From: Eledone cirrhosa
Lineage: Eukaryota
Reading direction: 5' to 3'
Length of the DNA: 64,000 bases
NCBI GenBank assembly: GCA_964016885.1
Contig: OZ024759.1
Coordinates: forward strand, 30,318,001-30,382,000
Shown here: positions 57,673 to 58,464 of the stretch, one piece after another
Numbering within the stretch: the stretch's first letter is position 1
Layout of the letters: every line of letters begins with the position of its first letter
Made by a program: the position numbers and the translations under genes
Notes under the pieces: generated by a model
What the model was told of the DNA's origin: nothing
What the model saw: the letters and a program-made list of their open reading frames with translations, nothing else
Database searches by the model: none

Positions 57673-57995
57673 CAGTCTGTATCGAACATTAATAATAATG
57701 TACGATTCGTTTGTAAACAAACGAACCCGTGTGTGTCAGTGTGTATATATATATATATATATATATATATATATATGTATATGTATATATATATATATAT
57801 ATATATATATATATATATATATATATATATATATATATATATATATATATATATATATATATATATATATATATATATATATATATATATATATATATAT
57901 ATATATATATATATATATATATATATATATATATATATATATATATATATATATATAAGAAGAAGAAATTAAAAGATATTTAAAAAAGTTCCATG

Positions 57996-58066
57996 TATTT
58001 TATTATGCGCATTTCAAAAACAAATATCATCCAGGGACGATATTTGCGTTCTCATCAGATAAAATA
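57996..58066 (-). ncRNA. Type I hammerhead ribozyme (family B, inverted arm)
   Basis: Reverse complement of 58145-58217 apart from a shorter T run. Confidence 0.85.
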
Positions 58067-58144
58067 GGGAGACATGATATGAAGCTTAAAAAAGACACTA
58101 CTTTGCTCACAAGTGTCTTTTTTAAGCTTCATATCATGTCTCCC

Positions 58145-58217
58145 TATTTTATCTGATGAGAACGCAAATATCGTCCCTGGATGATATTTGTTTTTTTGAA
58201 ATGCGCATAATAAAATA
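58145..58217 (+). ncRNA. Type I hammerhead ribozyme (family B)
   Basis: Stem I tattttat/ataaaata; CTGATGA; stem II caaatatcgtc/gatgatatttg; GAA; palindromic stem III ATGCGCAT; AUA cleavage triplet. Confidence 0.85.
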
Positions 58218-58464
58218 CATGGAACTTTTTGAACCATCTTTTAATTTCTTCTTATATATACTCCAGTCCAATAAACTGTTGAGTGCTACTTATCCGATAT
58301 TTGCATTGCTTTATTGTGCTACAATAAAACTCACCTCATATATATATATATATATATATATATATATATATATATATATATATATATATATATATATATA
58401 TCCTTCGTTTTTGAATTGGTTTTGCAAGATTTCTTATCTGAAAACGTGTGTTGAAACAGATATT

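Follow-up and report, generated by a model that had tools for sequence, protein, structure and literature searches.

The TA-embedded palindrome in this window (the whole 64-kb stretch of Eledone cirrhosa DNA that was analysed) is probably a short footprint left by the insertion of a Penelope-like retroelement from a very abundant family. In this footprint, an inverted, tail-less copy of the hammerhead-bearing element end stands head to head with a tailed direct copy, the whole being set in (TA)n. The features of the locus and of its relatives are collected in Table 1. The original prediction described a palindrome of ~300 bp between long (TA)n tracts. The palindrome is as described and TA abuts it on the left, whereas on the right a unique tail of about 80 nt precedes the 62-nt TA tract. 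This tail (58255-58338) and the positions of two further copies are additions to that account. The inner 84 nt are identical between the two arms of the 57958-58254 palindrome. Over the 119-121 nt compared, the arms share 116 identities with 3 mismatches and 2 gap letters, and one further small indel lies at their outer end, giving 3 substitutions and 2 indels in all. An identical interior combined with these few differences suggests that the insertion is young and is not a perfect duplicate. The whole insertion is shorter than 400 bp, and no ORF is attached to it. A 166-aa frame at 58126-58626 was considered as a gene and rejected, as it has no Pfam match and depends on a minority 7-T run.

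Table 1. Coordinates of the palindrome, its relatives and a second TA-embedded family in the window
Feature	Position	Strand	Remarks
Left (TA)n target tract, 174 nt of pure TA	57784..57957	.	imperfect TA continues to about 57744
Inverted arm (element-end copy without tail)	57958..58099	-	stops at a boundary that both other copies share in their inverted arms
Type I hammerhead motif of inverted arm	57996..58066	-	predicted cut between 58004 and 58003; family-majority 5-U run
Centre: inverted repeat of 7 bp with a 12-nt loop (58100-58111)	58093..58118	+	native to the template in related copies; likely head-to-head junction site
Direct arm	58112..58254	+	
Type I hammerhead motif of direct arm	58145..58217	+	cleavage predicted between 58209 and 58210; stem II base with 2 additional U
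One-sided tail, about 80 nt	58255..58338	+	once per insertion; two small predicted hairpins; AC-rich end
Right (TA)n target tract, 62 nt	58339..58400	.	
Second family copy	39455..39736	+	intact motif (39499-39569, -) in a long inverted arm; direct arm short (about 20 nt); tail
Third family copy	45477..45803	+	long inverted arm, core without G12; direct arm from GAAA box (45656); tail
Copies of the second, unrelated TA-embedded family	12870-13085, 13150-13301, 13508-13691, 44257-44384, 53201-53247, 61294-61511, 2310-2450		weaker: 40977-41057, 46593-46629

Two type I hammerhead motifs, one per strand, lie where they had been placed from the letters, each with an 8-bp stem I, the CUGAUGA and GAAA boxes, the AUGCGCAU palindrome and an AUA triplet. 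The core (CUGANGA, GAAA, UH) is present with stems I-III in both motifs. The pairing proposed for stem II is recovered, although not at the 11 bp originally given, as RNAfold yields 12 contiguous pairs and 3 more past a C.U mismatch. Similarly, the description of these hammerheads as complete holds for the core boxes and stems I and II but is generous, since stem III is limited to 2 bp in the monomer, compared with 8 bp as a duplex (-12.5 kcal/mol). The core-adjacent pair of stem II is G.U or A-U in all four window motifs, and the usual G10.1-C11.1 pair is absent. The ribozyme likely worked in a tandem precursor RNA of the source copies, either as a dimer or with protein help.

The window was searched for the motif with a descriptor of our own (stem I of at least 8 bp), with 200 shuffles as a control. 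The descriptor matched three sites, namely both arms of the palindrome and the copy at 39561, while the shuffles gave a mean of 0.02 matches and 0/200 reached 3. No hammerhead family was matched in the Rfam search, either at the gathering score or among the 18 matches to E 10, and the highest-ranking matches, to generic hairpin (miRNA) models, fell far short of the gathering score. Consequently, the motif call rests on the descriptor, folding and conservation.

The two further copies of the family in the window (39455 and 45477) have 84-89% identity to the 57958 copy over the shared arm. All three copies present the same order of TA, tail-less inverted arm, direct arm, tail and TA. Each is flanked by (TA)n, in which target-site duplications are unreadable, each contains a head-to-head inverted 5'-truncated copy, and each has a one-sided tail of about 80 nt. 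The copies differ in where the direct arm starts, which is about 150 nt before the tail in the 57958 copy, 60 nt in the 45477 copy and 20 nt in the 39455 copy. Only the 57958-58338 copy is symmetric with two motifs (1/3 window copies); the other two are asymmetric and lack a second motif, and the double-motif arrangement is therefore not a family trait.

The wider family was probed by mapping reads from 4 of the 10 listed sequencing runs to a reference made of one arm, the loop and the tail. Run X1 contributed 2080 matching pieces out of 16.5 million records, with a summed contig depth of up to 1.39 million on the motif, a value that is not equivalent to copy number; several single pieces have a depth of 7-10 despite this sum. 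Run X8, which consists of raw RAD reads from another sample with the same organism label, contributed 5036 matching reads out of 12.5 million, RAD reads being prone to pile on few loci. Behind the tail, 2677 X8 loose ends continue as TA-rich sequence. With three copies in 64 kb, we infer that the family is very abundant, on the order of 10^4-10^5 copies. Runs X5 and X7 yielded 14 and 1 matching pieces, which are perhaps trace DNA, and for this reason they were left out of host-range use. One X7 contig with a loose end before 58118 joins the upstream boundary of the element to SINE-core-like letters, suggesting a nested or truncated copy. Pattern scans of metagenome, viral and prokaryote-genome collections returned no related loci; two metagenome loci retrieved with a looser pattern both lack the stems and were set aside as chance matches.

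The reads and the window copies also bear on the conservation of the motif. The variant rows listed (40 of 69) leave the invariant core and stem I untouched, while the flanks vary and position 7 varies from U to C, a change that hammerheads tolerate. The C at 58197 is a minority variant (193/1313 X8 reads). At 58203, X8 shows a G-to-T change (1181 reads, all in one direction) that X1 almost entirely lacks; it was treated as a RAD pile-up. Across the four window motifs, 92/92 cells stay paired. Two-sided compensatory changes were found at 0/23 pairs in these four closely related motifs, and one-sided variation occurs at 7 pairs, all of which are still paired. Among one-sided changes at the Watson-Crick pairs of stem II, counted by hand, 7 keep and 1 breaks the pairing (p 0.035); from reads alone the tally is 5 to 1 (p 0.11). 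These observations lend modest support, short of proof, to selection acting on the sense transcript of the source copies.

The original prediction also held that the locus is a young, non-coding Penelope-like insertion with a dimer-type hammerhead. The inverted copy, the one-sided tail and the (TA)n target all agree with this proposal, whereas no RT/GIY-YIG partner was found in the window, where 0/108 frames matched an RT or GIY-YIG family (108 of 298 frames scanned, 190 low-complexity frames having been dropped). A window free of such a frame is as expected for stumps. On sequence grounds, Penelope-like membership is likely, standing one step short of a protein link.

The centre of the palindrome offers insight into how the insertion may have formed. 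In related copies, the 7-bp inverted repeat with its 12-nt loop belongs to the ordinary template, so the palindrome junction sits at a sequence that the template already possesses. In X1, 8 contigs run upstream from 58103 through the left 7 bases of the central stem and then leave the mirror arm (agreement 1; among the 17 of 156 loose-end rows listed). Because the inverted repeat is native in these relatives, the junction likely arose at the centre during integration. The central hairpin has a folding energy of -5.0 kcal/mol when folded as DNA. The second upstream variant, carried by the 39455 and 45477 copies and by 400 X8 loose ends, forms a hairpin at this position as well. X8 also contains opposite-strand joints within the family, at 58119/58193 (5 reads, 2 starts) and at 58120/58311 (95 reads, 1 start), both being few and drawn from piled RAD loci.

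The proposed mechanism of integration is as follows. First, an RT and GIY-YIG protein encoded elsewhere would nick (TA)n. Next, each target end would prime a cDNA, one starting at the RNA's tail end and the other at the inner boundary of the tail; these two start sites, which would define the tail, are modelled on the anole element in vitro. The two cDNAs would then extend in converging directions and be joined at microhomology between their 3' ends. The 39455 copy has a 3-nt microhomology at its junction (by eye). In the 57958-58338 copy, both cDNAs would have stopped at the native hairpin upstream of the motif, and a stop at a hairpin with complementary 7-bp arms is proposed to give the symmetric palindrome. 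Alternatively, a single cDNA may have folded back at the central hairpin, in which case the same letters are expected. Two cDNAs are favoured by the 39455 and 45477 copies, as their inverted arms hold sequence that the direct arms lack. Asymmetric copies formed by later deletion from once-symmetric palindromes could have the same appearance.

A further proposal refines double priming rather than replacing it. The template may be a dedicated RNA only about 270 nt long, non-autonomous and parasitising a Penelope-like element in the manner of a SINE; we regard this as possible but tentative. In its favour, the inverted arms of the 39455 and 45477 copies terminate no more than 3 nt apart, about 40 nt beyond the upstream edge of the shared region, although this end is defined by two copies only and a strong RT stop would look alike. 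The contrast between the summed depth on the motif in X1 and the low depth of several single pieces is also in keeping with a short RNA, as is the ability of two different upstream sequences to fold into a hairpin at the same place. However, X8 loose ends upstream of 58118 have a median of 66 nt (30 letters of each shown), and the template may go further. Precedent comes from the non-autonomous derivatives described for Chlamys (PMC8557442) and argued for retrozymes (bioRxiv 10.64898/2026.07.22.740005), as given in the portions of these sources consulted.

It is improbable that the locus is instead a MITE-like or foldback DNA unit mobilised as one intact palindrome, with the asymmetric copies as deletion products and the hammerhead as a captured relic. 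The near-perfect inverted arms and the TA target resemble such a unit, the 39455 junction lies on a 3-nt repeat, and long palindromes are deletion-prone. Against these similarities, the 80-nt tail is present on one side only and relatives carry the centre as plain template without a mirror arm. Furthermore, the junctions differ among copies, indicating that there is no fixed unit, and both the motif core and the sense-strand pairing have been kept.

The double arrangement might also be viewed as a working RNA switch, in which folding kinetics decide between self-cleavage and a long hairpin, as the original prediction suggested. Each arm alone can form stems I and II in folding predictions (mean stem I probability 0.60-0.67). 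The motifs point outward, however, and thus the antisense arm is transcribed before the ribozyme on either strand. Whole transcripts are predicted to fold at -224 and -230 kcal/mol with a stem I probability of 0.0, and forcing the ribozyme fold is predicted to cost 98-99 kcal/mol in whole transcripts and 82-92 kcal/mol in those ending at the motif end. Moreover, stem III needs a second sense copy, a role in which the inverted arm cannot serve, and since each strand has a single sense motif no dimer can form in cis. According to these models, only a transcription start inside the 12-nt loop would free the motif; bidirectional pLTR promoters have been suggested (PMC3846280, consulted in part). 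As two motifs occur in only 1/3 copies and the energies are so unequal, the kinetic proposal is not supported and a working switch is very unlikely. For read-through transcripts of the 57958-58338 stump, whichever the strand, the models instead predict an inactive hammerhead and a hairpin of about 145 bp.

Comparably small is the chance that the family is a non-LTR retrozyme, with tandem hammerhead units giving circular RNA. Non-LTR retrozymes are head-to-tail tandem units (PMC7229834; bioRxiv 10.64898/2026.07.22.740005, both drawn on in part). The family resembles them in being non-coding, in its type I motif and low GC, in a probable derivation from Penelope-like elements and in a monomer size within the 150-450 bp range (PMC7229834). 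In contrast, the copies here are head-to-head or single, with head-to-tail repeats in 0/3 window copies. No unit-length "goes back" joint was found in the 4 runs with a reference that lacks the commonest upstream part and could miss such joints. Finally, an assembly fold-back artefact is scarcely credible: the centre of the 57958-58338 copy is unconfirmed by reads because the mapping reference began at the loop, but the arms differ by private changes (e.g., the G at 58231, which the family almost never carries), the mirror stops at the tail boundary of the family, the flanks differ, and raw reads of another sample contain opposite-strand joints of the family.

Additional elements with related architecture are present in the window, where whole-window repeat finding was overwhelmed by TA tracts. 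A second TA-embedded family, unrelated to the first (Table 1), combines a tail-less inverted arm and a direct arm with a tail of about 90 nt on one side, and its junctions vary between copies. By eye, its arm resembles the 3' half of a hammerhead, with a GAAAC box, a 6-bp stem and a GUC triplet; no full hammerhead motif was found in it by the descriptor. The same build and the varying junctions of this family were counted in favour of reading the palindrome as an integration footprint. A third TA-flanked palindrome (60255-60590, the palindrome proper at about 60298-60523, about 225 bp), single in the window, has a one-sided extension of about 65 nt and possibly a hammerhead-like variant core. 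A short palindrome around a TA/TG core, seen by eye at 39255-39395, lies just left of the 39455 copy. The stretches 12780-12855 and 15250-15325 are near-identical; the former is followed by a long TA tract and second-family insertions while the latter is almost without TA, and the two are possibly a filled and empty site pair.

Other repeats were also observed. A SINE-like repeat at 57480-57669, which may be a coleoid cephalopod SINE, recurs in more than 15 other places (including 24009-24144, 29311-29616 and 46699-47132) with a core of 60-110 nt; a text search with this core pointed to no host group. A 5S rRNA match with a truncated 5' stem lies at 29629-29740 (-, 64 bits), and weaker 5S-like stretches (e.g., 18883-19047 and 49403-49553) suggest a 5S-derived SINE. 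Frames with WxGHVxR-like motifs at 48232-48648 and 63158-63472 have no Pfam match and presumably resemble decayed C-terminal ends of LINEs.

The single locus matters little, given that its layout is already in print. Its value lies in the family, as a natural record of Penelope-like integration and as a possible source of dsRNA. In a young, abundant family with readable junctions, fold-back and double priming can be separated by counting. The most far-reaching version of the short-RNA proposal, in which a dedicated short hammerhead RNA, a SINE-like Penelope parasite, is present at roughly 10^4-10^5 copies and is integrated by double priming that rebuilds the palindrome at each landing, is rather unlikely. 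Were the short-RNA proposal true, this family together with the two others of the same build would be a main source of self-folding, near-perfect dsRNA and hence of substrates for A-to-I editing in this octopus-like genome, and thousands of junctions would constitute a ready-made in vivo test of integration. An exceptionally high share of near-perfect dsRNA loci and hyper-editing have been described for octopus, and heavy editing affects Penelope copies in lizards as well as a palindromic repeat in the frog (PMC5625713, in the part consulted). In a coleoid cephalopod host, such stumps could help to explain the octopus share of near-perfect dsRNA and its hyper-editing, as the palindromic repeat does in the frog (PMC5625713).

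Comparison with published systems, each source being drawn on in part, places the locus among known Penelope-like insertions. The layout itself is already in print for these elements, and the family would be a new one of a known kind: a literature search, with Repbase, Dfam and most subscription papers outside its scope, found no report of it. Penelope-like families have been recently active in Octopus vulgaris (PMC13282606). Penelope-like insertions have an adjacent inverted 5'-truncated copy, often a 30-40 bp tail at one end, and a (TA)n bias, with the mechanism called open and target-site duplications in (TA)n likewise noted as unreadable (Craig et al. 2021, PMC8557442). In Penelope-13_HM (Hydra clade, (TA)n), an attached inverted copy carries a second motif on the other strand (PMC8557442). 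Abundant head-to-head repeats with palindromes at the junction have been read as self-priming (Arkhipova et al. 2013, PMC3846280). The locus shares with EN+ Penelope-like insertions the head-to-head inverted copy, the tail at one end, the junction palindrome, the (TA)n target and a hammerhead near the 3' end (PMC3846280, PMC8557442). It differs from them in its tail of about 80 nt, about twice the 30-40 bp in print, in having no ORF and in its length of less than 400 bp. The (TA)n bias is common to the Hydra, Neptune and Naiad clades, and the canonical motif found here argues against Naiad (PMC8557442). Two 13-nt element motifs and one RNA spelling were not found on searching the Craig supplement, and the octopus Hydra motif given there differs in sequence from the family motif (PMC8557442). 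For Hydra-1_oBim an A-U core-proximal pair is listed after an extra G, which may be compared with the G.U or A-U pair in this family (PMC8557442).

The hammerheads themselves are similar to those of metazoan Penelope-like elements, which are type I with a small palindromic helix III and a long helix II, occur mostly solo or as opposite-strand pairs, and are found in truncated copies (Cervera and De la Pena 2014, PMC4209133). Dual hammerheads on opposite strands lie 100-700 bp apart, and monomers showed no cleavage while dimers showed low cleavage (PMC4209133). In Schistosoma, stem I has 4-5 bp and stem II 7-8 bp, compared with 8 and about 15 bp here, and the core-proximal G-C pair conserved in metazoan elements contrasts with the G.U or A-U pair, together with the AUA triplet, of this family (PMC4209133). 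A mechanistic parallel is the Anolis Poseidon element (PAc), in which both target strands are cut and extended and two RT start sites bound the tail, while the ribozyme is protein-assisted and dispensable for insertion in vitro (Frangieh et al. 2024, PMC11167929). The PAc ORF starts in stem II, whereas the family-majority letters here give a stop soon after the candidate ATGs (by eye). The AT-rich target of PAc, the priming of both strands and the two RT starts are the basis of the mechanism proposed for this family (PMC11167929).
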